Virus record (IMG/VR): IMGVR_UViG_3300014613_000055
Span: 1-37,689 of that record
Source of the DNA: a virus
Lineage: Duplodnaviria > Caudoviricetes
Reading direction: 5' to 3' (one strand)
DNA: 37,689 nucleotides
Shown: positions 792 to 37,642 of the stretch, piece by piece
Numbering within the stretch: the first letter of the stretch is position 1
Layout: each line of letters begins with the position of its first letter
The notes under the pieces: generated by a model
Told to the model about the DNA's origin: nothing
The model's input: only the letters and a program-made list of their open reading frames with translations
Database searches by the model: none
Program-made: the position numbers and the translations under genes

Positions 792-911
792 ATGAAGAAA
801 ATTAAAATAATAAGAATTGAATTTAATAATGGGGGATATGTTGAAACAAATGATATTTTATTGGTTGAGAAGATATTCAAAATAATTAAGAAAGCAGAGA
901 AAGCAACTTAA
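792..911 (+). CDS. Small hypothetical protein (39 aa, MKKIKIIRIEFNNGG...)
   Basis: Read manually; GGAGG SD; stop TAA lies inside the CTTAAC repeat end. Confidence 0.55.
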   Translation: MKKIKIIRIEFNNGGYVETNDILLVEKIFKIIKKAEKAT

Positions 912-1252
912 CAAGGGTTTTGGTTGGTCGGGGAGAAACTCAGTAGCTACATAATTCGTTTGAGTCTAAGGACGTTGAAAACATTATGAAAATACGCTGG
1001 ATATAGCTTCCCGCCCATCTAAAGCTCTGGTTGAGGGTTTCTTAGAGCATAGACGGCAGAGTAAGGCAATAAAGTGAGAGCCGTCCCATTGTAGCCTTGC
1101 ACATAATTGGGGTCTCTATGCTCTAACAAGCTCTGGTTATATCAACTTAACAAGGGTTTCTTAGATTGGTGGACGTTGCCCTAATGAAATAAGGCAATGC
1201 CAATTCCTTCGGGGATTGAAATTTACACCTCCACCAATCTGCCAATCTCTTG
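907..1252 (+). repeat. Tandem array of three long-stem elements with conserved ends and variable interiors (914-1028, 1034-1134, 1151-1252)
   Basis: CAACTTAACAAGGGTTT at 904 and 1143; AGGGTTTCTTAGA at 1034 and 1153; AAGCTCTGGTT at 1022 and 1128; each unit closes a ~20-23 bp imperfect stem. Confidence 0.85.
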
Positions 1253-1262
1253 AAAGGAAAAG

Positions 1263-1673
1263 ATGAATAAGATTACAAAACACGCCGGAGGGCGACCAAC
1301 CAAGTACACGCCTGATATATGGCCGAAAATAAAGAAGTATTTATCTATGTGTGGTAGGGAGAACATGGCATTACCAACAGTAGAAGGATTAGCAATTCAC
1401 TTAGATGTTACTAGCGAAACGATAAGACAGTGGGCTACCAAATATAAAGAGTTTTCTTTGACAATAAAAAAACTAGCAGACAAACAGAAGGAGCAATTAA
1501 TGAATGATGGTATGTATGGAGGGAAAGAAATCAATCAGGCAATGGCTATATTTTTACTCAAAGTAAATCACGGAATGAACGAAGGGCCAAACACATTAAT
1601 CCAAGTCAATGTCAAACCAATATTAGGAGGTGCAAGTGTTCAAAGAAGTAACAGCGACCAAGAAACTGCTTAA
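1263..1673 (+). CDS. terS: Terminase small subunit
   Basis: GRPTKY N-terminus, HTH-like PTVEGLAIHLDV..TIRQW, AIFLLK motif; directly upstream of and overlapping terL. Confidence 0.85.
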   Translation: MNKITKHAGGRPTKYTPDIWPKIKKYLSMCGRENMALPTVEGLAIHLDVTSETIRQWATKYKEFSLTIKKLADKQKEQLMNDGMYGGKEINQAMAIFLLKVNHGMNEGPNTLIQVNVKPILGGASVQRSNSDQETA

Positions 1674-2808
1674 ATTAAAAAAGAGAATAAGAGGCATAGC
1701 CGGTGGCACGTCAGCATCTAAAACTGTCTCTATCTTACTTATCTTAATTGACCTAGCACAATCAACTAAGGGTAAATTAATATCGGTAGTATCTGAATCA
1801 TTCCCTCACTTGAAGAGAGGGGCGATTAGAGATTTCCTTAACATAATGGAAGCACACAATTACTTTCAGCCGAAGAGTTGGAACAAGACCGATTATATTT
1901 ATACATTTCCGAAAGGATCAAGGATAGAGTTCTTCTCAGCAGACCAGCCAGGCAAAGTACGAGGGCCAAGAAGAGATGTATTATTCTTGAATGAGGCAAA
2001 CAACATATCTTACGAAACATATACACAGTTGGAAGTTAGAACGAAAGAAATTATATGGCTAGACTGGAATCCAGTGAGTGAATTCTGGTGGTACGAAGAA
2101 GTATTAGGAAAACAAGATTGTGATTTTCTTACATTAACTTACTTAGATAACGAGGAATTGGATCCAAACATAGTCAAAGCTATCGAAGTACGCAAGGGAA
2201 GCAAGAATTGGTGGAAAGTATACGGATTAGGTCAATTAGGGGAAGCAGAAGGGAGAATCTTTACTGATTGGAAGATGATAGACGAAGTACCTCACGAAGC
2301 TCGCTTAGAACGATATGGTATGGACCTTGGCTATTCTAATGACCCTACCTCGATAGTGGCGATATATAAATACAACAACGGAATCATATTAGACGAAATA
2401 GCTCACTTGAAAGGATTATCAAACAAACAAATAGCAGACATATTACTAAATGCACCTAGAGCATTAATCATAGCCGACAGCGCAGAACCTAAAAGTATTG
2501 ACGAAATAAGAATGCACGGACTAAGCATACAGCCATCTCAAAAGGGTCAAGGATCAGTCTTACAAGGCATCCAATGGGTACAACAGCAACGAATAAGCGT
2601 AACCAAGAGAAGTCTTAATATCTTAAAGTCATATCGTAACTATTTATGGGAAACCGACAAAGAAGGTAAAATAATCAACACACCCGAACATATATTTAGC
2701 GATGCTATGGACGCTATAAGGTACGGAATGGAAAGCCTTAGACCACAAGATGACGACAACTACGACATACCAGATGATACTAGAATGTTTGACAAAGGAT
2801 TCTATTGA
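1630..2808 (+). CDS. terL: Terminase large subunit, PBSX-like
   Basis: Walker A GGTSASKT, Walker B LFLNEAN, DWNP, nuclease motifs GMDLGYSNDP, DSAEP, DAMDAIRY. Confidence 0.95.
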   Translation: MQVFKEVTATKKLLKLKKRIRGIAGGTSASKTVSILLILIDLAQSTKGKLISVVSESFPHLKRGAIRDFLNIMEAHNYFQPKSWNKTDYIYTFPKGSRIEFFSADQPGKVRGPRRDVLFLNEANNISYETYTQLEVRTKEIIWLDWNPVSEFWWYEEVLGKQDCDFLTLTYLDNEELDPNIVKAIEVRKGSKNWWKVYGLGQLGEAEGRIFTDWKMIDEVPHEARLERYGMDLGYSNDPTSIVAIYKYNNGIILDEIAHLKGLSNKQIADILLNAPRALIIADSAEPKSIDEIRMHGLSIQPSQKGQGSVLQGIQWVQQQRISVTKRSLNILKSYRNYLWETDKEGKIINTPEHIFSDAMDAIRYGMESLRPQDDDNYDIPDDTRMFDKGFY

Positions 2809-3035
2809 TGAAATATGAACTGTCCATTTCAGACCACAACAAACAAGCCCACATTGACCTTGAAGACGATATTAAATCAAGAAAGAATGGGCTACTTACT
2901 TTTACCTTACGAGTTAATAAAGGAAACATTGTTGATTACAACTTAACAGAATATGTCAACGCCAAACAAAAATACCTTAGCCTTAAACGAGTTATTGTCA
3001 GCGAATTTGTCGTTACACGCAATCGTGGAGAATGA
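2805..3035 (+). CDS. Small protein with DUF2292/YezD-like pattern
   Basis: GLLTFTLRVNKGNIVD beta-hairpin pattern; similar to the next ORF. Confidence 0.6.
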   Translation: MMKYELSISDHNKQAHIDLEDDIKSRKNGLLTFTLRVNKGNIVDYNLTEYVNAKQKYLSLKRVIVSEFVVTRNRGE

Positions 3036-3150
3036 AGTAAGACAGACCCCCTTTGGTCAAATAACATTTACGGTGTCTTTAGTAGACGGTGTTGCGTTAA
3101 TAGACACTCTTAATATAGTAAAGAATAGAAGGAGAAGGTATAAGGGTTGA
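2953..3150 (+). CDS. Small basic protein with DUF2292/YezD-like pattern
   Basis: FGQITFTVSLVDGVALID pattern, RRRRYK tail. Confidence 0.6.
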   Translation: MSTPNKNTLALNELLSANLSLHAIVENEVRQTPFGQITFTVSLVDGVALIDTLNIVKNRRRRYKG

Positions 3151-8000: not shown

Positions 8001-8768
8001 ATGAAAGCATACATAACAGGATCGAACGGATTTATAGGAACACACCTCAAAAAGAGGTTGGATAACTTCGTTGCTATTCCCCACAAAGAGATTAGATCAA
8101 TCAAACTAGAACCCTACGACAATTTTTACTTCTTATCAGCTTATGGGAACATGGCTTTCCACGATGAAGACGAAAAGATACTCCAAGCAAACATCCTCGA
8201 CCTAATCAGTATCCTCAAACAGCACAAGAAATTTAAGTCATTCGTCTACGTTAGCACTTCAAGCGTTAGATTGCCAAGACAGACAATGTATTCAAGAACC
8301 AAGAAAGCAGCCGAGGAAATTTTATTGTCATTTATGGAGAAATATGACGTTCCTATCTGCATAGTTAGACCATTTTCGGTTACTGGTGTAGGTGAACAGA
8401 AAGAACACTTAATTCCCTCACTGATACGTTCCTGTATTGACGGAGATCAGATGAATTTTGTACCAGGGCCAGTCCACGACTTTATAGATGTAGAAGATGT
8501 GGTTGATGGAATTGTTAATTTATCTTCTCACTCCGCAAGAGGGATATATGACTTAGGAACAGGCAAACAGGTTTCCAATCAAACAATATTAGAAATCGTC
8601 CAAGAAGTTACCGGCAAGACGGCAAATATCAATGTTATCAAAAAAATGAGGGACTACGACACAAACGAGTGGGTTTCACTCAACTACAAAGCAAGAGGGT
8701 ATGGTTGGCTTCCCAAAAAAGGATTACAGCAATCTATTGAAGAAATGGTGAAGGAGTACAAGAAATGA
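8001..8768 (+). CDS. NAD-dependent NDP-sugar epimerase/dehydratase (extended SDR)
   Basis: TGSNGFIG, STSSV, YSRTK, RPFSVTG, DFIDVEDV motifs. Confidence 0.92.
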   Translation: MKAYITGSNGFIGTHLKKRLDNFVAIPHKEIRSIKLEPYDNFYFLSAYGNMAFHDEDEKILQANILDLISILKQHKKFKSFVYVSTSSVRLPRQTMYSRTKKAAEEILLSFMEKYDVPICIVRPFSVTGVGEQKEHLIPSLIRSCIDGDQMNFVPGPVHDFIDVEDVVDGIVNLSSHSARGIYDLGTGKQVSNQTILEIVQEVTGKTANINVIKKMRDYDTNEWVSLNYKARGYGWLPKKGLQQSIEEMVKEYKK

Positions 8769-9379
8769 ATGAGTTAGAAAAAAGAATAATTGAAATTAGT
8801 TATAAACACAAGCTATCCCATCTTAGCTCTTGTTTGACATCGGTTAATTTGATTGATGCGATATATAAGTCCAAGAAAAAGGATGAACCATTCATTCTAA
8901 GTAATGGACACGCAGCTCTCGCCTTATATGTAGTATTAGAAAAGTACGAAGGCAAAGATGCTGAGAAATTATATGATAAACACGGCACGCATCCCAATAG
9001 AAACTTAAAAGATGGTATTTATTGTTCAACTGGATCACTAGGACAAGGACTGACTATTGCTGTGGGTATGGCTTTGGCTGATAAATCAAGAAATGTCTAT
9101 GTAATGAGTTCTGATGGTGAAATGGCCGAGGGAGCTTGTTGGGAGGCACTAAAAATCGCTTCAGGGCTTAGGATTGAGAATTTAAGGCTAACTGTGAACG
9201 CTAATGGCTACACGGCTCTAGGTAGAACAGATTCCGACCTTTTAGACTTGAGGTTGCAGTTCTTTTACCCTTGTTTGGTGATTAAGACTAACCTATTCGG
9301 TTGGCCTGATTGGTTGCAGGGAGTTGATGGACATTATGTAGTTATGGATAAAGAAATGTACGAGGAGGTAATGAAATGA
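8765..9379 (+). CDS. Transketolase-like ThDP enzyme, N-terminal subunit
   Basis: LSNGHA, STGSLGQG, SDGEMAEG...N ThDP motif. Confidence 0.92.
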   Translation: MNELEKRIIEISYKHKLSHLSSCLTSVNLIDAIYKSKKKDEPFILSNGHAALALYVVLEKYEGKDAEKLYDKHGTHPNRNLKDGIYCSTGSLGQGLTIAVGMALADKSRNVYVMSSDGEMAEGACWEALKIASGLRIENLRLTVNANGYTALGRTDSDLLDLRLQFFYPCLVIKTNLFGWPDWLQGVDGHYVVMDKEMYEEVMK

Positions 9380-9528
9380 AAACAATTAGAACCATAATAA
9401 ATCACCTTGAGGCTATGCACTTTGCAAACGCACAGTCTCCGCAAAATGAAAAAGCAGAAGGGTATAAACAAGCCCTTGATGATGTTCTCGCTTGGTTAAA
9501 AGGATATGAAAAAACACAACAGTATTAG
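9376..9528 (+). CDS. Small hypothetical protein (50 aa) between the transketolase halves
   Basis: Read manually; ATGA overlap; GAGGAGG SD; GYKQALDDV helix. Confidence 0.55.
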   Translation: MKTIRTIINHLEAMHFANAQSPQNEKAEGYKQALDDVLAWLKGYEKTQQY

Positions 9529-10006
9529 AGGTTGGTTTGCTTACGAGCTTTACCAACAAATGAAGAAGAATAAGGACATTTACCTTATTACACCAGATTT
9601 GGGGTATAAAATGCTTGACAAAATCAAGGAAGACTATCCCGACAGATTCTTTAATGTGGGAGCGTCAGAACAAGCTGCCGTAGGCATAGCAATAGGGCTA
9701 GCACAAGAGCAAAAAATACCTTTTGTTTATTCGATAACACCATTTCTATTATACAGGCCCGCAGAGTGGATTAGAAATTATCTCCACAAAGAAAATGCCA
9801 ACGTCAAATTAGTAGGAGCAGGAGTTGGAAAGGATTACAAAGAGGACGGATTTACTCATTGGTCGGATGAGCCTTACAACACACTAATAAGCAGATGGCC
9901 GAATATCAGACAGTTTTGTCCTAACGAGAAAGAAGAATTGCCGAAAATAGTTGAAGAAATGGTAAAGAACAATAAACCAAGTTTTTTACATTTGAGGAGG
10001 AGGTGA
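9506..10006 (+). CDS. Transketolase-like enzyme, pyrimidine-binding subunit
   Basis: DLG, RFFNVGASEQ, GLAQE..IPFVYS, GFTHW motifs. Confidence 0.92.
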   Translation: MKKHNSIRGWFAYELYQQMKKNKDIYLITPDLGYKMLDKIKEDYPDRFFNVGASEQAAVGIAIGLAQEQKIPFVYSITPFLLYRPAEWIRNYLHKENANVKLVGAGVGKDYKEDGFTHWSDEPYNTLISRWPNIRQFCPNEKEELPKIVEEMVKNNKPSFLHLRRR

Positions 10007-10012
10007 TGAGAA

Positions 10013-10186
10013 GTGATTAGAAGAAAGAAGATTACAAAAGCGGAAATAGAAGAGTTAAAGAATTTATTGCTACCAGAGACACAGCGAGATGATGCTGGAA
10101 TACTCGAATTAGCAACAGCAGCTCTTGTTAGCGATTTGCACAAAAACAAAATATCAAGAATAAGAGCATTGGTAAATAAACTTTGA
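10013..10186 (+). CDS. Small hypothetical protein (57 aa)
   Basis: Read manually; GTG start after GGAGGTG; fills the gap and overlaps the next start. Confidence 0.5.
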   Translation: MIRRKKITKAEIEELKNLLLPETQRDDAGILELATAALVSDLHKNKISRIRALVNKL

Positions 10187-11046
10187 TGAATAATGAATAC
10201 TTAATGTTTAGGCACACGCTTTCTAAGGACAAGTACAAAGTACCCATAAAGTACGAGGATAAGGTCAAGAGAGTTGACCCTGATGTTATAGAAAGCAAAC
10301 TAAGGAGTAAGGGTAAAGCAATCTTCCTAAGCGGAGGATTGGATAGTTCGTTATTGGCGGCAATTAACAAGCCCGAAAGAGCCTATACAGCACTATTCTT
10401 TGATGAGGATGGCGAAAGGGAGTGGCTTTGGGCAAGAAAGGTCGCAGACCGCTTGGACATTTCCCTCATTCCTGTAGGCATTACAAGAGAAAGATATTTG
10501 TCAACACTAGAATACCTAATTAAACAAAAAGGAGACGGACTTCATCCCAACGAACCCTGTCTTTACCTAATGGCACTTCAGGCCAAGAAAGACGGATTTG
10601 ACACAATTATATCCGGTGAGGGTGCAGACGGGTTGTTTGGAGGCTATACCGACTTACTAATAAACGAAGATAAGATTATGAAGGATGAGCCTACTTTTAG
10701 AAAAAGATACCTACAAATAGATACAGGCGATCCAATTCCCTTTGAGAAGTGGCGAGAATGGGGAATGTATCGATTTTTACTAGAAGTTCACACACCAGGA
10801 TTAATAGATAGAGCGGTCAATGCTTGCAACTCAGCAGGAATGAAAGTAGAGTTTCCTTACCTAGAGAATGGCATACCTCAGTTAATGTGGAACGCTCCAA
10901 TGGGACAGAAGATAGACAAGCCCATTCTAAAAGAGATCGCTAACAAGTATTTACCAAGAGAAATCATTTACAGGAAGAAAGTTGGGTTCCCTGTTCCCTG
11001 GGACACTAAAGAGTTCTTATTCCTAAATAAGGAGATATGCGTGTAG
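10183..11046 (+). CDS. Asparagine-synthase-like N-type ATP pyrophosphatase (no glutaminase domain)
   Basis: LSGGLDSS PP-loop, SGEGADGLFGGY, KKVGFPVP. Confidence 0.9.
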   Translation: MMNNEYLMFRHTLSKDKYKVPIKYEDKVKRVDPDVIESKLRSKGKAIFLSGGLDSSLLAAINKPERAYTALFFDEDGEREWLWARKVADRLDISLIPVGITRERYLSTLEYLIKQKGDGLHPNEPCLYLMALQAKKDGFDTIISGEGADGLFGGYTDLLINEDKIMKDEPTFRKRYLQIDTGDPIPFEKWREWGMYRFLLEVHTPGLIDRAVNACNSAGMKVEFPYLENGIPQLMWNAPMGQKIDKPILKEIANKYLPREIIYRKKVGFPVPWDTKEFLFLNKEICV

Positions 11047-11423
11047 GTTATACAACAGGCGTGTTTGATATGTTTCATATCGGGCACCTTAATATTTTGA
11101 GAAACGCCAAGGCTATGTGCGACAAGCTAATAGTAGGTGTCTCTACTGATGAATTAGTCAAAGAAAAAGGCAAGAAATGCAAGATACCATTTGAACAAAG
11201 AATTGAGATAGTCAGAAACATTAAATTCGTTGACTTGGCAGTTCCCCAAGCAACAACCAACAAACGACATGAGTGGGAGAAATTAAGGTTCAATATCGTA
11301 TTCGTAGGTGATGATTGGTTTGGCAACAAAGAGTGGAATAAATATGAGAGCGAGTTAAGTAAGGTGCAATTTATCTATTTCCCATATACGAAAGGAGTCT
11401 CATCAACAAGTTTACGAAAATAG
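11037..11423 (+). CDS. Cytidylyltransferase, TagD/glycerol-3-phosphate type
   Basis: GVFDMFHIGH (HIGH), GVSTDE, VGDDW, YTKGVSST. Confidence 0.93.
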   Translation: MRVGYTTGVFDMFHIGHLNILRNAKAMCDKLIVGVSTDELVKEKGKKCKIPFEQRIEIVRNIKFVDLAVPQATTNKRHEWEKLRFNIVFVGDDWFGNKEWNKYESELSKVQFIYFPYTKGVSSTSLRK

Positions 11424-11467
11424 AGCAACATTTAATAGACACAACCGAATATCTGAAAAGCATCGGC

Positions 11468-11959
11468 TTGACTACTTTTTTGATTGGATCTACTTTGTTG
11501 CAAATAGTTAGGAATGGAGAATTCAAGGAACGCCATCAGTTTGACAGAGAGATAAACGTGGGCTGCAAAGAAGAGGACTTTACGCCAGCCATGAGAGAGA
11601 GAATTACCAAGGACTTTAAGAGAACTGAGTGGCATGATGGTTTTTGTCTTTTTGGTAATCAAGATGATACCTTTTGGCAGGGCGAAGGGTCATATTTTTC
11701 CCTGCTTGGAAAATTTAAGATATATAAAAACGATAGAGTTGAAAACATGGGGATAGGGAATTATTTAGTTTGGCCGAAAAAACATTTGAAAACACTAAAA
11801 CAGATTAACTATAAGGGTTATACGTTCAATGTTCCTAATTATAGATTTAAGTGGCTAGAACATTATTACGGTAAACATTGGGAGGAAGAAGATTTATCTT
11901 GGAATTGGTCAAATGCTGCAAATCTTAAAAAAGTTTCAGAAAATTCAGATTTGGGGTGA
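11468..11959 (+). CDS. LicD-family phosphotransferase
   Basis: GSTLLQIVRNG..FDREINVG resembles LicD GTLLGAVR..DDDID; YKGYTFNVP..LEHYYG C-terminal motif; next to a cytidylyltransferase. Confidence 0.72.
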   Translation: MTTFLIGSTLLQIVRNGEFKERHQFDREINVGCKEEDFTPAMRERITKDFKRTEWHDGFCLFGNQDDTFWQGEGSYFSLLGKFKIYKNDRVENMGIGNYLVWPKKHLKTLKQINYKGYTFNVPNYRFKWLEHYYGKHWEEEDLSWNWSNAANLKKVSENSDLG

Positions 11960-12630
11960 TTATGATGAAGAAAAAAATAGAGTTAAATGCGTTATTCTAC
12001 CCAGGAGGAAATGTCAAATTTGAAAGTTTGTATATACCGTATATATACAGGGAAATATACTTTGAAGGAATATATCAGAACCTTGTCGATAATTTCAAAG
12101 ATATGGTTGTTGTTGATGTAGGAGCAAACATTGGCATTGTTACTCAATATCTAAGAGACTACGCCAAGAAGTTATATGCCGTTGAGCCTTCAAGTGAACA
12201 TTTCGAAGCTCTCAAGAAGAACAAAGAATTTAACAAGTGGGACAACGTAGAAGTATTTAACGTAGCGATAGCTGATAAAGATGGCGAGATGGACTTTCAT
12301 ATCAATACAACGAATAGAACTTGTCATAGTTTAACTCAAGATATAGGTTTCGGTTATACCGATACTGAAAAAGTTAAAACGATGGCGATGGACTCATTCT
12401 TCAAGGAAAACAAGATTGGGGAAGTGGATTTTATGAAGTTTGATGTGGAGGGAGCAGAAGATATGATTTTACGAAGCGAAGGATTTGCCAAAGTTGCACC
12501 CAAGATTAAGAGAATCATGGTTGAGTTCCATCATCCAACATGGCCTAAATTAGTACAACATATGAGCACATTGGGCTACACAGCAAACAGATATGAAAGT
12601 TCGGCAGTGGTTGTTTTATTTTCAAGATGA
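11956..12630 (+). CDS. FkbM-family SAM methyltransferase
   Basis: VDVGANIG, AVEP, FMKFDVEGAE, VEFH. Confidence 0.93.
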   Translation: MIMMKKKIELNALFYPGGNVKFESLYIPYIYREIYFEGIYQNLVDNFKDMVVVDVGANIGIVTQYLRDYAKKLYAVEPSSEHFEALKKNKEFNKWDNVEVFNVAIADKDGEMDFHINTTNRTCHSLTQDIGFGYTDTEKVKTMAMDSFFKENKIGEVDFMKFDVEGAEDMILRSEGFAKVAPKIKRIMVEFHHPTWPKLVQHMSTLGYTANRYESSAVVVLFSR

Positions 12631-13274
12631 AGTTCAAAAACAAATTAATGTGGTTGAATACTGGTAACGGAACGGCGGGGTATCAACTCAATCTCATGGA
12701 GTATTTGATGACAAAGTTTCGCAAAGACTTTGTTGTTTTGGAAGTGGGAAGTGCCTATGGGGGGGCTGTCGAGATGATGACGCAGGTTGCAAACCATGAA
12801 TTGGGTAGGGAAAACGTGTCTGTTTATGGATACGATACTTTTGAAGGACACCCCAAGGATTTGGCCGATGATCCGAACAGTATGGAAGCAAAAGTCATGG
12901 ATGAATGGTACACAACGGAAGGGTGCGAAAAAGACAAGTTATCTTACGATTATCAAAGAAAGATACTCGATGATTTGGGCTTAACCAACGCTCATCTAGT
13001 TAAGGGTCGTGTAAACAAACACTCATTTGACGATATTAAGAAAGTTCACCTGGCAATGCTGGACATGGATTTAGTAAAACCAACCAAGGTGGCTTACCAC
13101 GCATTAAAAGACAAAATTGTTAGTGGTGGTTTTATGATGTTCCACGATGCCTACCCACCAGAACACCTACCACTTCTTTACGACTTTGTTAAAAATGAAG
13201 TTATAACGGATGAAAGATGGAGACTTGATGAAGTGTCTAGGGAAGGTTATTTTGTAGCATTAGAAAGAAAATGA
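12627..13274 (+). CDS. TylF/MycF-like sugar O-methyltransferase
   Basis: LEVGSAYGG, YGYDTFEG, LVKG, LDMDL, GGFMMFHD. Confidence 0.85.
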   Translation: MKFKNKLMWLNTGNGTAGYQLNLMEYLMTKFRKDFVVLEVGSAYGGAVEMMTQVANHELGRENVSVYGYDTFEGHPKDLADDPNSMEAKVMDEWYTTEGCEKDKLSYDYQRKILDDLGLTNAHLVKGRVNKHSFDDIKKVHLAMLDMDLVKPTKVAYHALKDKIVSGGFMMFHDAYPPEHLPLLYDFVKNEVITDERWRLDEVSREGYFVALERK

Positions 13275-14035
13275 AAGTAGTCTTTTTTACATTGGTTTCA
13301 GACGATTACTATTATCTTTGTGGAACACCACAATTTATCAATTCGTTTAAGTGGTTTCACCCAGATATTGATTTAGTCGTGTTTAGACAAGATATGGTAG
13401 ATAAGGTTTTCAAAAAGAAAGACATTAACTTCTACATGGCTAAACCTACTTTTGCCAAACTATTGACCCCACATTACGACTTAGTGGTCAATATAGATGC
13501 GGACAGCATTATTTTGGGAAGGTTAGATGAAATATTAAAAGGAGATTACGATATAGGTGGAGTTATGAACCTTAACGATTATGAGAACAGGACCATAGAG
13601 AACGTAAGCGAGGAGATGTACTTAAATGCCGGATTGATAGCTTCAACCAACAAGAAGTTTTGGGATATTTGGGAGAAGTCTAACAAAGACGCTATGAATT
13701 ATGTTTGCAAGGAAAACGACAAAATGAACCTTGTCATTTACAATGACCCCGAAGTAAAGAAAATGAAGTTAAAGGTTTTCGACAAAGAAAAAGATTATTA
13801 TGGTTGCAAGAGCCTTAATCGAGAGGGTGAGTTTTATGTAGCAGAAGAAAAAGTCTATGACACACCTACTACGAACGTAATGTGTCGAGATGAAAGAGTA
13901 TTTATTTATCATAACGCCAAGGGAGCGTTATTTCCCAAACTGAATTTTAGCAAGATGGGCTTCCCTCCTGAAGTTGTTAAGCGCATGAATGTTCTATCTA
14001 TGTATGGCAAGTCAGTTAGATATGGAGGATTTTGA
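13271..14035 (+). CDS. GT-A fold glycosyltransferase (GT8-like)
   Basis: NSFKWFHPD, IDADSII (DxD), YLNAGL, END..N, YHNA. Confidence 0.75.
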   Translation: MKVVFFTLVSDDYYYLCGTPQFINSFKWFHPDIDLVVFRQDMVDKVFKKKDINFYMAKPTFAKLLTPHYDLVVNIDADSIILGRLDEILKGDYDIGGVMNLNDYENRTIENVSEEMYLNAGLIASTNKKFWDIWEKSNKDAMNYVCKENDKMNLVIYNDPEVKKMKLKVFDKEKDYYGCKSLNREGEFYVAEEKVYDTPTTNVMCRDERVFIYHNAKGALFPKLNFSKMGFPPEVVKRMNVLSMYGKSVRYGGF

Positions 14036-14793
14036 AACATAGACCTTACAGTATAATGACACCGCCTTTTGAGCCGCTTTCGGGAGGTATTCGTGTCATG
14101 TATGGACTTTATGGGTGGTTGTTGGCAAAAGGGCAACTTGCTTACTTAAACGCTACTTTTGAAAGTCCGAACTTTGTTGCGGTTTATCCTGAGATTTATC
14201 AAGGCAATATCACGGGGTCTAACAACGTAGTTAGGTATATTCTTCAAACTCCTGGTGTTATGAATTTATATGGTGTTCCTGGCGAGACCACCTTCCCCAA
14301 GAATGACAAGATATTTGTTTTTTCAAAGATTTATGACACTTTTGGGGTAGATGATGACCATTTAATGTTCTTACCTATTCTTAACCTTCATTTATTCAAG
14401 GATTATGGGAAGAAACGCAAGAAAACCTGCTATATGGTGGGAAAAGGGGAAAACCAACACAATCACCCAGAACACTCATTTGAATTGACAAGAGAGTTTG
14501 CTTTAGATCAGAGAGCATTAGCAGACAAACTCAACGAGTGCCAAACGCTATATATCTATGATAGGTGTTCGGCAATGATGGAAATTGCTCGATTATGTGG
14601 GTGCAGGGTGAAATACTACGGGAACTTCAAAAAGGAAGATTTAGAAAAGTACGAGCCTGGAATGAACGGTATTACTTACAAAGATGAGGAAGATATACCT
14701 CTTGATGTGGATGCTTTCAATGAACACTATCGAGGAATGATTAAATTATTTGAGAAGAAATTAGACAAATTTATAGAAATAACCCAAAAATGA
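14032..14793 (+). CDS. Putative glycosyltransferase-like protein
   Basis: SGGIRVM start, VYPEI..GN....VVRY, YD..SAMMEIARLCGC; GT-B-like; cluster context. Confidence 0.6.
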   Translation: MKHRPYSIMTPPFEPLSGGIRVMYGLYGWLLAKGQLAYLNATFESPNFVAVYPEIYQGNITGSNNVVRYILQTPGVMNLYGVPGETTFPKNDKIFVFSKIYDTFGVDDDHLMFLPILNLHLFKDYGKKRKKTCYMVGKGENQHNHPEHSFELTREFALDQRALADKLNECQTLYIYDRCSAMMEIARLCGCRVKYYGNFKKEDLEKYEPGMNGITYKDEEDIPLDVDAFNEHYRGMIKLFEKKLDKFIEITQK

Positions 14794-15338
14794 TAATGCT
14801 CAATTTAGGTTGTGGATTAAGGCAGCGAAAAGGATTTATAAATGTAGATAATTATGTGGAAAAATCGGGGAAAGCGAAATTCGTTAAGGCAGATATACGG
14901 AAGTTGCCTTTTGAGAACGATTATGCTGATTATGTTGAAATGATGAGCGTATTAGAACACATACCATTTAATGATGTGTTGAAGGTTCTAGCTGAGATTA
15001 GCAGAGTAATGAAGCCTGGAGCGGAATTGGTTATCCAAACAGAGAACTTTGACGGTATCGCTTTAGATTGGGCAAGAATGTGTATGGAAGGCTGGAACCC
15101 ACAAGAATATATGAATGTTATGGAAACAGTTTATGGCAATCAGAGACACGAAGGGGAATTTCACAAAACGGCTTTTAATCCAAGATTTATGGATGCTTGT
15201 TTAAGGGCAGTAGGATTCAGAATTAAAAGTATGGCAAACTATCCCAAAAACTCACCTATACCTGAATTCGGCACTGTTCCAGCAGACCCCAAAAGATTTC
15301 TAAGAAGCGACCAATTATTAGCAGTAGCAATCAAATGA
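14790..15338 (+). CDS. Class I SAM methyltransferase (Methyltransf_11-like)
   Basis: LNLGCG, DIRKLPF, VLEHI, RVMKPG. Confidence 0.9.
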   Translation: MIMLNLGCGLRQRKGFINVDNYVEKSGKAKFVKADIRKLPFENDYADYVEMMSVLEHIPFNDVLKVLAEISRVMKPGAELVIQTENFDGIALDWARMCMEGWNPQEYMNVMETVYGNQRHEGEFHKTAFNPRFMDACLRAVGFRIKSMANYPKNSPIPEFGTVPADPKRFLRSDQLLAVAIK

Positions 15339-15883
15339 AGAAATATCAAATAATTTATGCAGACCCACCATGGGCTTATAACGACAGGAGGAATAAACAC
15401 ACGAGGTTTTGTGGTGGAGCAATGGTTCATTACTCAGTAATGGATTACAAGAAAATAGGCAAGATTCCTGTTGAAGATATAGCAGATAAAGATTGCGTTC
15501 TGTTTTTATGGGCAACCTACCCCAATTTAATAGAAGCACTTTACACAATGGATGCATGGGGATTTGTTTACAAGACGATTGGGTTCAATTGGGTTAAAAC
15601 AAATAAAAATAATGGCAAACCCTTCTTTGGAATAGGTTATTACACTAAGTCAAATAGCGAGGCTTGTTTGATTGGAGTTAAGGGTAAGCCTAAAGTAAAA
15701 AGCAATTTTGTTTCTCAAGTTGTAATGTCTCCACGAAGAGCGCATAGCCAGAAACCAGACGAGGTTAAAGAGAAGATAGTTGAACTTATGGGAGACATTC
15801 CGAGGGTCGAACTATTCGCAAGACAAAAAACAAATGGTTGGGATGTATGGGGAAATGAAGTGGAAAGTGATGTAAAACTATGA
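15335..15883 (+). CDS. MT-A70-family N6-adenine methyltransferase
   Basis: IYADPPW, LFLWAT, HSQKP, ELFAR, WDVWGNE. Confidence 0.93.
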   Translation: MKKYQIIYADPPWAYNDRRNKHTRFCGGAMVHYSVMDYKKIGKIPVEDIADKDCVLFLWATYPNLIEALYTMDAWGFVYKTIGFNWVKTNKNNGKPFFGIGYYTKSNSEACLIGVKGKPKVKSNFVSQVVMSPRRAHSQKPDEVKEKIVELMGDIPRVELFARQKTNGWDVWGNEVESDVKL

Positions 15884-16971
15884 AGAAAATTAAAATATTT
15901 TGCCTTCCATCTCACCAAACTAAAGAAAGAACCTCCGGCGTAGATATGGTGAGGATAATTCAACCTATGCAACACTTAGACAAACACAAAGATTTCGAGG
16001 TTACAATATTTGACATACACAACAAAGACCACGATGATCCGACCAAAACAAGGTGGGACAACGTAGCTGAAGAACACGACATTATTTACCTTAATTATAT
16101 AGGTAATGCTTGGGCTTTTGCGGCGATGGGGGCAATGGCTCGCAAGTACAATAGGAAGATAGTTTTTGACCTTGATGATGACCTTTGGGGCATAGGAGAA
16201 GACAACCCTGCGTACAAGGTCTATCATACGGGGAGCGAAGCCTTAAAGAACTTTACCTCAATGTGCAACGAAGTAGACTATATGACTACTACCAATTTAT
16301 ACCTTAAACACGTAATCGCTCACAATACTTACAAGAAACACGACAAGATTAAGATATTTCCTAATTATATTGATTTCAAGCTATATAATCACAGACCCAA
16401 GTTCAAAGATACTCCCAAGATACAACTATTACACTTTGGATCAACAACTCATTTCCTTAGCTTACAAAATGAAGAATTTATGAAAGGAATAGACAAGATT
16501 TTCAAAGAATTTCCAAATGTTACTCTAAAGACTGTAGGTGCATTTCTTCCCAAGTACAAGGCCAAATGGGGAGAGAGATACGAGAACGCTCTAGGCCACC
16601 AAGATGTTTATAAGTGGATTAAAGATAAATTCCCAGGATATATGGATGAAGCAGATATTATAGTAGCTCCACTTGAAGACAATTTATATAACCGTTGCAA
16701 GAGTGATATTAAACGTACTGAGAGTGCAAGTGCCAAGAAACCATTTATTGGTCAAGACCTGAGACAATACAAAGAAGTCATAGATGATGGTGTAGATGGG
16801 TTTATTGCCGGAAGCGAAGAAGACTGGTATCAGAAGATTAGAGCGTTAATAGAAGACAAAAAGTTACGAAAGAGTATGGGTGAAGCCGGATTCAAACGAG
16901 TAAGTGAAACGAGGCAAATGAAAGACCACGTACAAGATTATGCGGATTTCTTCAAGGAGATTCTTTCCTAG
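15880..16971 (+). CDS. GT-B fold glycosyltransferase (GT4-like)
   Basis: RIIQP, FDLDDDL, FPNYID, DIIVAPL...NRCKSDIK, DGVDGFIA, LRKSMGE. Confidence 0.88.
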   Translation: MKKIKIFCLPSHQTKERTSGVDMVRIIQPMQHLDKHKDFEVTIFDIHNKDHDDPTKTRWDNVAEEHDIIYLNYIGNAWAFAAMGAMARKYNRKIVFDLDDDLWGIGEDNPAYKVYHTGSEALKNFTSMCNEVDYMTTTNLYLKHVIAHNTYKKHDKIKIFPNYIDFKLYNHRPKFKDTPKIQLLHFGSTTHFLSLQNEEFMKGIDKIFKEFPNVTLKTVGAFLPKYKAKWGERYENALGHQDVYKWIKDKFPGYMDEADIIVAPLEDNLYNRCKSDIKRTESASAKKPFIGQDLRQYKEVIDDGVDGFIAGSEEDWYQKIRALIEDKKLRKSMGEAGFKRVSETRQMKDHVQDYADFFKEILS

Positions 16972-29977: not shown

Positions 29978-30159
29978 CTTGGTTTGATAGCAAAGGACAG
30001 GAATTTTACTTTGATTACAAGATTACAAAAAATAGATATGAGAGCCATACAAAAGAAGAATTACAGGACTTACTTCTAATGGCACAGAGACGAGAAGAAG
30101 AAGGGCTTAGCATGACCGAAACAATAATAAAAATAGAAAATGCTTTAGAAAAAAAATGA
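29959..30159 (+). CDS. Hypothetical protein
   Basis: ORF track. Confidence 0.6.
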   Translation: MVKEKLTWFDSKGQEFYFDYKITKNRYESHTKEELQDLLLMAQRREEEGLSMTETIIKIENALEKK

Positions 30160-30520
30160 CCGAAAGAATAAGTTTTGTTTAGTGGGGTCAAGTTAAGTTT
30201 AGTTTCACCAACTAATTAGAATGGGGGTGATAAGTTATGATACCAGTCAAGAAATTAAAGCGAGTTGAGGGAAAGATTTTAACATTGATAGACTCTGTAC
30301 TCCCAGAGGGACAACAGAATATGTCAACAAAGTCTTTGATAAGTCAGATATTTGGTGAGCTTTACGCTTACGCTGACTTTGGCAAACCAACCTCTGGCTC
30401 AGTAACCGCAACTGAAGAAAAAACTGGCGGAAGATTCAAAACTGCAACAAAGGCAGAAGAAGCAAAGAAATAAGGTGGGCTTGACCCCACCAAAGAGAAC
30501 TTAAAATGACCGAAAGAATA
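30153..30520 (+). mobile_element. Insertion-like cassette: 18-bp direct repeats plus terminal inverted repeats around one ORF
   Basis: AAAATGACCGAAAGAATA at 30153 and 30503; GTGGGGTCAAG (30182) / CTTGACCCCAC (30480) within a ~24 bp imperfect stem. Confidence 0.7.
30237..30473 (+). CDS. Hypothetical protein inside the cassette (78 aa)
   Basis: ORF track; GGGGGTGA SD. Confidence 0.75.
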   Translation: MIPVKKLKRVEGKILTLIDSVLPEGQQNMSTKSLISQIFGELYAYADFGKPTSGSVTATEEKTGGRFKTATKAEEAKK

Positions 30521-34734: not shown

Positions 34735-34860
34735 ATGGGAAAACTTAAATGCGAAGTCTGCGGGAAAAAGGAAGGTGGAACGATATATAGCTGTATGACA
34801 AACATAAGATATTGCGGGGAGTGTTACTTAAAAGCAGACTTAAAGGAGAAGATAGAATGA
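34735..34860 (+). CDS. Small zinc-finger protein (41 aa)
   Basis: Read manually: CEVCG...YCGEC. Confidence 0.55.
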   Translation: MGKLKCEVCGKKEGGTIYSCMTNIRYCGECYLKADLKEKIE

Positions 34861-36587: not shown

Positions 36588-36866
36588 ATGAAGAAATTAC
36601 CGACATATCAATCTGATAAACTGATAGCTGAGTTTATTGTTGACAACCCTGACTATGCAAAGAAATATTTGAGAGCAACAATGCGAGAAACTAGACTCAA
36701 AGAGAGAAACATAGAAATTGCGATGCGATATATAACAAGTGACGAGAGCTACAAAGAAGTAGGTGAACATTACGGCTTAACACTAGAAAGAATAAGACAA
36801 ATTACACACAAACTCATGAGAGTGATTGGGGTTTTGTTAAGGAGAATAGAACGTAAGGTAGCTTAA
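36588..36866 (+). CDS. Sigma-70 region 4-like HTH protein
   Basis: SYKEVGEHYGLTLERIRQI closely matches the region 4.2 consensus. Confidence 0.82.
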   Translation: MKKLPTYQSDKLIAEFIVDNPDYAKKYLRATMRETRLKERNIEIAMRYITSDESYKEVGEHYGLTLERIRQITHKLMRVIGVLLRRIERKVA

Positions 36867-36941
36867 CAAGGGTTTTGGACTTGAGGTTATGAATGTCCGA
36901 AAGGAGTTTACGCCTCAAGCCTAAAGCTCTGGTTATATCAA
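36862..36941 (+). repeat. Fourth copy of the conserved-end stem element
   Basis: CTTAACAAGGGTTTTGG identical to 907-923; CTAAAGCTCTGGTT = 1019-1032; AAGCTCTGGTTATATCAA = 1128-1145. Confidence 0.9.
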
Positions 36942-37001
36942 TCTAACGGAAATATTGATATAAGAAAAAAATTATATCAATGGTCTGATATAGCGAGGCT
37001 A

Positions 37002-37273
37002 ATTAGTCGCACAAGCGACATTGTAAGACGGAGGTGAATAAAGATGGTATTAGACAGAAAAGCATATAAAGTAAATTTTGGGAGAGAGACTACTGTTGGT
37101 GATGTTTGTAGTGAAGATTCAAAAGTTGTGATTGCTGAAACAGCCGAAAGAGCTATTGAAATAGCAAAGGATTTATTATCAGCAAAAGAAAAGAAAGTAT
37201 ATTATGTTTCAGAAGTAGAAATGTTAATAAGCAAAATTGACGAAGATTAGTCGCATAACAACATTGTAAGACG
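37002..37273 (+). repeat. Imperfect ~28-bp direct repeat ATTAGTCGCA...ACATTGTAAGACG flanking one gene
   Basis: Copies at 37002-37030 and 37246-37273. Confidence 0.85.
37044..37250 (+). CDS. Hypothetical protein (68 aa)
   Basis: GGAGGTG SD; VIAETAERAIEIA beta-alpha pattern. Confidence 0.75.
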   Translation: MVLDRKAYKVNFGRETTVGDVCSEDSKVVIAETAERAIEIAKDLLSAKEKKVYYVSEVEMLISKIDED

Positions 37274-37279
37274 AATAAT

Positions 37280-37642
37280 ATGAACAAATTAAAAAAGATA
37301 ATAGAGTATGCGGCAGAGAGAGGGTGGAAGAAACCGTATAGAACAATGGATGCCGAAACTGTGATTGAAAGCGGTTGGGTAAAGTACATTCTCTTTGACC
37401 ACGACTTTGCAAAGGCTGTGTTTGGGGAGGGAATGGCTGTTGATTACACCAAATCGTGCCCACATTGTGGAGGAGACCTGAAAATTTCTAATCCTACTGG
37501 AAAATGTAGTCATATTTATTACCCCGAGGCCTGCGATGTTTGTTCTTCCTACTACATAGACTGGATTGACCACCTTCAACAAGCCGTTATTAGTAAAGAC
37601 CCAATAGATTATTATTACAAATATATAAGGAAATTAAAATGA
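37280..37642 (+). CDS. Hypothetical protein with Cys/His insert
   Basis: ILFDHDFAKAVFG; CPHC..C.H...C..C. Confidence 0.75.
   Translation: MNKLKKIIEYAAERGWKKPYRTMDAETVIESGWVKYILFDHDFAKAVFGEGMAVDYTKSCPHCGGDLKISNPTGKCSHIYYPEACDVCSSYYIDWIDHLQQAVISKDPIDYYYKYIRKLK

Follow-up and report, generated by a model that had tools for sequence, protein, structure and literature searches.

Among described systems, the stable RNAs of phage T5 appear to be the closest to the intergenic hairpin units reported here. T5 RNA III, RNA IV and RNA2H (AY543070.1) combine long closing stems with different branched interiors, as the units do, and T5 RNA1-3 are annotated as tRNA-like (RNA3 as 'putative'), most of them with unknown function. 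The likeness seems to be one of design without sequence kinship, with no shared frame sequence recognizable by eye. The T5 RNAs belong to a tRNA cluster; the units are set among small ORFs in a genome without tRNA genes and, unlike the T5 RNAs, have one fixed frame and recur between unrelated genes.

The intergenic helix of ~20 bp found here also resembles RNase III processing stems, such as the early sites of T7 and SPO1. Judged by the E. coli rules (PMC6212723, PMC1540722), the core of the units (U-A, U-A, U-A, G-C, G-C) coincides with the top-ranked RNase III pairs at D'-A (PMC6212723, Table S4). The units differ in that one frame surrounds many unrelated structured cargos, and their cleavage is only predicted. 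In the PeSL cassettes of T4-type phages (PMC2839356), small non-essential genes are likewise shuffled at a conserved element in intergenic DNA, and exchange of modules at a conserved element is also seen for the units. However, PeSL elements consist of a sigma70 promoter and a terminator hairpin, whereas no promoter-like or terminator-like site was found inside the units. Here, moreover, the shared homology spans only ~10-25 nt and the cargo is the RNA itself. Finally, bacterial Y RNAs (YrlA; PMC4201824) and irregular or allo-tRNAs (PMC5389517) are tRNA-derived or tRNA-mimicking non-coding RNAs, some of them in phages, and PMC4201824 describes the YrlA of M. smegmatis as cut by RNase P and receiving CCA. 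In contrast, the units have no Rfam match at gathering level and no cloverleaf; no Ro60/TROVE protein was found among the ORFs scanned against PHROGs and Pfam. A literature search, with most subscription papers and older T4/T5 work beyond its scope, returned no paper on this cassette family.

Hairpin units in a small-gene region

The window, i.e. the whole stretch of 37,689 nt that was analysed, is an entire 37.7-kb virus record. PHROG and Pfam matches to terS, terL, a major head protein and a CHAP endolysin identify a tailed phage; in line with the initial annotation, no integrase was found among the ORFs scanned (61 against PHROGs, 47 against Pfam), and ARAGORN called no tRNA gene in the window. 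The genome is very likely circular, judging from an ORF that runs in frame from 37639 across into 1-129, and units 4 and 1 would consequently share one small-gene region, with unit 4 ~1.7 kb upstream. The runs containing at least half of the region's words were groundwater metagenomes (n = 4, three of which may be the source of the window). The features of the region are as follows, together with ORF 436-786, for which no match was found in the Atlas:

792..911, + strand: 39-aa ORF ending inside the left linker (K-A-T-stop), no PHROG or Pfam match
900..911, + strand: left gene-boundary linker, AAAGCAACTTAA
912..1030, + strand: unit 1 (W1), frame CAAGGGTTT/AAGCTCTGG closing a 20-bp basal helix
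929..1017, + strand: tRNA-Pro-like body in unit 1, acceptor CGGGGAG (929-935) / CTTCCCG (1007-1013)
1032..1136, + strand: unit 2 (W2), 5' linker lost, 22-bp basal helix
1137..1150, + strand: spacer between units 2 and 3, TTATATCAACTTAA
1151..1252, + strand: unit 3 (W3), 3' arm AATCTCTTG without GTT
1246..1262, + strand: right linker, TCTCTTGAAAGG, including the putative terS RBS
1263..1673, + strand: terminase small subunit (phrog_606, E 4.7e-12; PF16677)
36588..36866, + strand: 92-aa ORF with sigma70-region-4 HTH (PF04545, E 9e-8), stop directly before unit 4
36867..36932, + strand: unit 4 (W4), the shortest unit, GAAA-capped
36933..36963, + strand: second hairpin 3' of unit 4, common to L002 and L069

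All four stems proposed in the initial annotation are present, as are the complementary inner arms that it quoted, and they fold better on the + strand (RNA fold z of -4.7, -2.9, -5.4 and -5.3 for units 1-4) than on the - strand (0.2, -2.5, -3.1 and -2.0). Units 1 and 4 do start at an upstream stop, right after the TAA of ORFs 792-911 and 36588-36866, respectively. The proposed stem length of 20-23 bp widens to 18-26 bp for the basal helix in MFE folds, and the supposedly conserved ends exist without being universal: CTTAACAAGGGTTT occurs only at 907, 1146 and 36862 and an exact AAGCTCTGGTT only at 1022, 1128 and 36924, unit 2 lacking the 5' CTTAA and beginning with TGAGGGTTTC, and unit 3 ending in its 3' arm without GGTT. 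Two internal segments of unit 2 are complementary over 7 bp, and unit 3 folds into a three-way junction that includes a UUCG hairpin, with TCCACCA in its interior. When the arms were kept and the interior was shuffled, z remained at -2.7 to -5.1 for the window units and -2.4 to -6.8 for all 13 entries, against a mean of -0.27 and a minimum of -2.43 for chance both-arm matches in the same test (40 of 106). No further units were found in the window.

Several side observations concern the surroundings. Repeated TATATCA/TGATATA palindromes stand behind GGTT-ended units (L069 510-580, window 36933-37000) and may be hairpins or protein-binding sites. At 30153-30520, a 78-aa ORF (30237-30473) lies between 24-nt inverted repeats (30169-30192 and 30480-30503), which are in turn flanked by an 18-nt direct repeat (30153 and 30503), and the segment has the look of a small insertion element with target duplication. 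Between the capsid and tail genes, the block 8001-16971 holds epimerase, transketolase halves, asparagine-synthase-like and cytidylyltransferase-like genes along with several methyltransferase and glycosyltransferase genes, possibly for virion or DNA glycosylation.

Frame and interiors across other phages

Collection pattern scans yielded 12 distinct interiors (W1-W4, L002, L055/L070, L072, L075, L077, L079, L088 and L045) within the frame CAAGGGTTT...AAGCTCT(T/G)G, in units of 66-204 nt, and two more (L260a, L260b) in a sibling frame that retains only GGTTT/AAGCC. At the 3' end, CTCTTGAAAG is the commonest sequence; it pairs with CAAGGG and has no GTT. Pairing at frame columns 1 and 3-9 is seen in 11-12 of the 12 units; columns 11-12 alternate between G-C/G-U and U-A, L045 has G-C for G-U, and only five units pair column 13, which is the discriminator position. 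The basal helix measures 18-28 bp in 12 of 13 entries and 44 bp in L077, and most of these helices contain 3-4 G-U pairs. By a lenient measure, 15 of 106 chance matches also reach a basal stem of at least 19 bp, and by a stricter one chance matches attain at most 16, compared with 21 in the true unit. The initial preference for RNA folding on the top strand extends to the whole family, the RNA energy being lower on the + strand in all 12 entries. The interiors are 48-186 nt long and their cores are mutually unalignable with the exception of L055 and L070, which differ by a single change (GTAA/GCAA) within a GNRA-type sequence; GNRA or UUCG loops occur in W3, W4 and L002.

True units accounted for 1 of 2, 1 of 29, 3 of 12, 1 of 107, 1 of 1 and 2 of 48 matches in the scans of viral collections and for 13 of 35 loci in the metagenome scan (among them two from the window's own record and a third identical to the window), and for none of the 25 pattern matches in GTDB genomes; matches with unpaired arms or interiors, or with linkers absent, were dropped and counted as chance. 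The gapped patterns spanned at most ~103 nt, and long units such as that of L045 (204 nt) were consequently missed. A linker search gave three matches, one of them useful, and BLASTN of 880-1270 against 50,697 phage records returned only 10 short chance matches. The Rfam comparison suggested in the initial annotation gave no match over the window at E ≤ 5; by entry, sub-threshold matches were obtained only for units 1-3, L079 and L045, with none for L077. Hammerhead, T-box and tmRNA readings made by eye had no Rfam support. Likewise, a pRNA-like link to the terminase was rejected, as none of 13 terL relatives (63-79% identity, several with little upstream DNA) carries the arms, and the genes that follow units elsewhere include groES, ORFs that by eye are methyltransferase-like or glycosyltransferase-like, and others. 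On L121, a related phage contig, GroES and GroEL (1049-3046) lie directly behind the unit.

Among the sub-threshold matches, unit 3 weakly resembles CRISPR-DR10 (14.3 bits, E 2.6; gathering score 39), as might suit antisense or guide RNAs, C4-like or mimicking CRISPR repeats, with variable targeting loops. Such a role is highly improbable: the interiors pair across their whole length, and the longest complement in the own genome is 9-11 nt in six of six units, the same as in shuffles, although short bipartite targets would escape this measure.

Several interiors appear instead to be remodelled tRNAs, an origin which, like the linker-bounded mosaic described below, was missed earlier. Fourteen interiors were compared with 109 tRNAs called in the fetched loci, which belong to unrelated bacteria and phages and not to the host, and the nulls are per-interior values, uncorrected for the 14 tests. 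The acceptor of unit 1 agrees with that of tRNA-Pro(TGG) at 14/14 positions, including a G-U pair (null 1/500), C occupies the discriminator position and is followed by CCA (1015-1017), and the 5' half aligns to tRNA with a local score of 32 (1/100 shuffles). Similarly, L075, L079, L045 and L260b match the tRNA-Tyr acceptor at 14/14 plus ACCA (null 6-8/500), and L260a, which ends in CAA, matches that of tRNA-Thr at 14/14 (null 8/500), while L072 and L088 reach 13/14 with tRNA-Tyr, which is weak on the acceptor alone (43 and 55/500); both of these can form G3-U70. The combined test of 7-bp acceptor, discriminator and CCA thus gave 14/14 in six of the 14 interiors and 13/14 in two; no tRNA match against the 109 references was found in the other six (W2, W3, W4, L002, L055, L077). 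By-eye assignments of unit 2 to tRNA-Gln and of unit 3 to tRNA-Tyr were abandoned, the former failing the acceptor test (187/500) and the latter showing no significant tRNA match.

Two interiors retain more than the acceptor. L260a keeps acceptor and T arm, with one hairpin replacing the D and anticodon arms (RF00005 22.4 bits, E 0.014), and L088 keeps a T arm and aligns to tRNA-Tyr with a score of 45 (0/100 shuffles; RF00005 18.1 bits, E 0.17); both RF00005 scores are below the gathering score of 29, and units 1-3 gave no RF00005 match. Although tRNA-Tyr is the commonest donor, the six Tyr-ended units probably share one origin, which leaves three independent tRNA origins and not eight, and the case for tRNA ancestry rests on these three isotypes together with the T arms. 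The frame was nowhere found to enclose an intact tRNA, and ARAGORN at default called no cloverleaf in the units, its relaxed calls being unreliable. In W2, W4, L002 and L077, CCA is changed to CTA or CAA. In tRNA-ended units the leader UGG pairs with the CCA, so that the 3' end would be hidden until the helix is cut. The six real tRNAs of L122 (7799-9084) have no such frame by eye; that segment also contains a G+C-rich stretch at ~8020-8175 and an ORF between tRNA-Gly and tRNA-His.

Decaying tRNA pseudogenes that hitch-hike between linkers without a function would account for the silence of ARAGORN and for the gradation among the units, some of which keep acceptor and T arm (L260a, L088), others the acceptor only, and still others no recognizable tRNA. 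This origin is nevertheless unlikely, as new helices replace the lost arms, basal stems stay at 18-28 bp (44 in L077) and the sole L055/L070 change preserves the GNRA type.

Linkers, exchange and the integron question

The arms of the units are extensions of short gene-boundary words, AAAGCAACTTA on the left and GCTCTTGAAAGG on the right, each of which also occurs stemless: the left linker stands without a stem before an RBS in L121, L122 and L088, and the right-linker variant lacks a 5' arm in L002, L069 and L077. The units are preceded by a stop codon and followed by an RBS. Thirteen contexts have the linker TAA, which in seven of them serves as the upstream stop, and the next ATG follows TTG-ended units by 6-18 nt. 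This placement is what would be expected of stems cut by RNase III and/or RNase P only to split or stabilise the message, with a disposable interior. T7 early sites, P1 C4 RNA and mitochondrial t-elements are precedents for cutting in cis. We regard the idea as doubtful, since interiors of 48-186 nt are structured beyond the frame (z -2.4 to -6.8) and mutually unalignable, and three units follow one another in tandem with no gene between. Also drawn from the placement, but very unlikely, is a role as uncut spacers that join the upstream stop to the downstream RBS for translational coupling or regulation of the next gene; the helix does open at the stop and close at the RBS, and empty linkers connect the two directly, yet the tRNA ends, the tandem units and the GGTT-ended units without an ATG in the next 40 nt would be left unexplained.

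Comparison of loci bears out the earlier proposal of a cassette system, in that units recur between unrelated genes. L070 has only a 94-nt unit-plus-linker block in common with L073 and L122 (98.9%), the surrounding genes being unrelated. L069 and L077 are 100% identical over 290 nt upstream and 204 nt downstream, and the small ORF and unit between differ. Unit 4 is identical in L069 but stands there behind a different gene, and L002 places another interior before the same downstream hairpin as unit 4. Small ORFs are shuffled in the same manner as the units: in DNA runs, neighbouring small genes are replaced or skipped between 129 and 900, at joints that rest on sides of 24-27 nt. We infer that the cassette is spread by recombination at short linker homologies; no recombinase for the exchange was identified.

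Further repeated modules were noted nearby. A 62-nt module at 351-413 lies between GGAGAATTATAG repeats, contains two TTTCGAAA palindromes and a 19-aa ORF, is common to L121 and is skipped in run X7. The window and L121, otherwise different phage contigs, begin at the same base and are 99% identical over 129 nt (1-129 in both), and this common start is probably an assembly break at a shared module. Gene-boundary words recur at 37006-37030 and 37249-37273, as well as at 34849 and 35009, and the 279-nt module 37013-37291 between the former pair is 98% identical in L088.

The initial annotation had considered integron attC sites, which PMC5027507 describes in terms that resemble the units: an imperfect palindrome with conserved ends, a variable tip, a stop codon and strand-biased folding. 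According to the same source, attC sites have no stretch common to them all except the AAC triplet, and extrahelical bases and an unpaired central spacer are characteristic. RYYYAAC indeed precedes 11 of 12 entries, and 11 of 12 fold better on the + strand as DNA. However, AAC and GTT are both present in only three of the 12 distinct units (W1, W4 and L002), the R-box pair thus being absent in nine, and GTTRRRY is matched by none of the 12 entries. No unpaired central spacer was found, the region beside AAC/GTT being paired, and the basal stems of the window units contain symmetric mismatches, not extrahelical bases (a single bulged A is present in L045, L075 and L079). Unit-precise change at TAAC/GTT had been anticipated; shared blocks instead have their borders at the edges of linkers, 0-13 nt outside the AAC and after CTTGAA, away from the crossover triplet. 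Considering also the scanned ORFs, among which no integrase was found, and the GTDB genomes, whose 25 pattern matches include no true unit, it is extremely improbable that the units are attC-like single-strand DNA recombination sites for a host integrase, reversed relative to the genes. The G-T pairs cited earlier against attC reflect a real + strand bias, but this does not by itself exclude attC, since a reversed attC would put the G:T-rich bottom strand on +; the rejection is based on the missing R box and not on strand bias.

Predicted processing and possible roles

The stems were scored with in-vivo RNase III pair counts from E. coli at a threshold of -25.5 (PMC6212723, Table S4), the orientation of the table being deduced from the text of that paper and L045 and L260 not being scored. 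Scores of at least -25.5, each the best of its registers, were obtained for 10 of 12 entries and for none of the 106 chance both-arm matches. The register that cuts after frame position 12 and at CC^A was the best in 8 of 12, tied in W1 and among the top three in 12 of 12. Conversely, the score exceeded a same-template null in only two of 12 entries (W3, 21/500; L072, 7/500); the units share one frame, and their scores are consequently not independent, and the matrix derives from E. coli, which need not be the phage's host. The scoring is thus compatible with the predicted cleavage and does not prove it. The processing handle offered as an alternative in the initial annotation accordingly gains ground as far as substrate shape is concerned, the ~20-bp helix expected of an RNase III substrate being present, with cleavage itself as a prediction. 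Contigs of RNA run X6, the only form in which it was used, cover 776-1114 along with dispersed fragments of structural genes, both to a comparable depth; DNA carry-over is therefore possible and no expression signal is specific to the units; the fold-back contig of X6 at unit 2 has a counterpart at 64-119.

In combination, we lean towards the reading that structured small RNAs, some of them of tRNA origin, are released through RNase III-type handles, and that these cassettes are shuffled by recombination at their linkers. At the level of sequence, fold, frame, acceptor matches, UGG:CCA pairing and near-identical units between unrelated genes all support it. The sense strand of each unit folds into a long helix, which the fixed 9-bp frame closes; having no promoter or terminator inside, the unit would be transcribed within the polycistronic small-gene message. 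A host RNase III-type nuclease would then cleave the helix with a stagger, behind frame position 12 and at CC^A, freeing an RNA with an N-C-C end, which a CCA-adding enzyme would complete and RNase P might trim. The units would spread via short-homology recombination at the linkers, as the neighbouring small genes do. Against release stands the predicted mispairing of units 2 and 3 in the array, where the 3' arm of unit 2 alternatively pairs with the 5' arm of unit 3 (p ~0.5 at equilibrium). Once released, the RNAs would act in trans as structured ligands, and the likeliest targets of the tRNA-ended ones would be host tRNA-recognising proteins, since the acceptor ends are fixed and new helices stand in for the D and anticodon arms.

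Some toxins attack the acceptor ends of tRNAs. A tentative extension of the release reading is a library of RNA decoys spread over the phage community, which may sequester tRNA-end-recognising proteins of the host, be they enzymes or defence toxins. It is possible, at the same tentative level, that tRNA genes were captured in a nuclease-released scaffold in which the acceptor stem and CCA were kept and the rest was swapped. Equally tentatively, the cassettes could be traded between unrelated phages in the way of anti-defence protein genes. The commonest donor, tRNA-Tyr, is a documented anti-phage target, of retron-Eco7 (PMC11555353) and of Septu (PMC13096335). In the former, the SP15 tRNA-Tyr no longer gave rescue from retron-Eco7 once its anticodon or stems had been mutated, so that the arm-less RNAs could not act by replenishing translation; as this known counter-measure needs intact anticodon and stems, an arm-less decoy would be a new mode.

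The stable RNAs of T5 are still annotated as of unknown function, and the units offer the same design as a set of modules. Since the frame is fixed, the cut site is predicted and the interiors range from near-tRNA to unrecognizable, processing and function become testable part by part. The family suggests a route by which new non-coding RNAs may arise from tRNA genes in phages and be passed on in cassette form.
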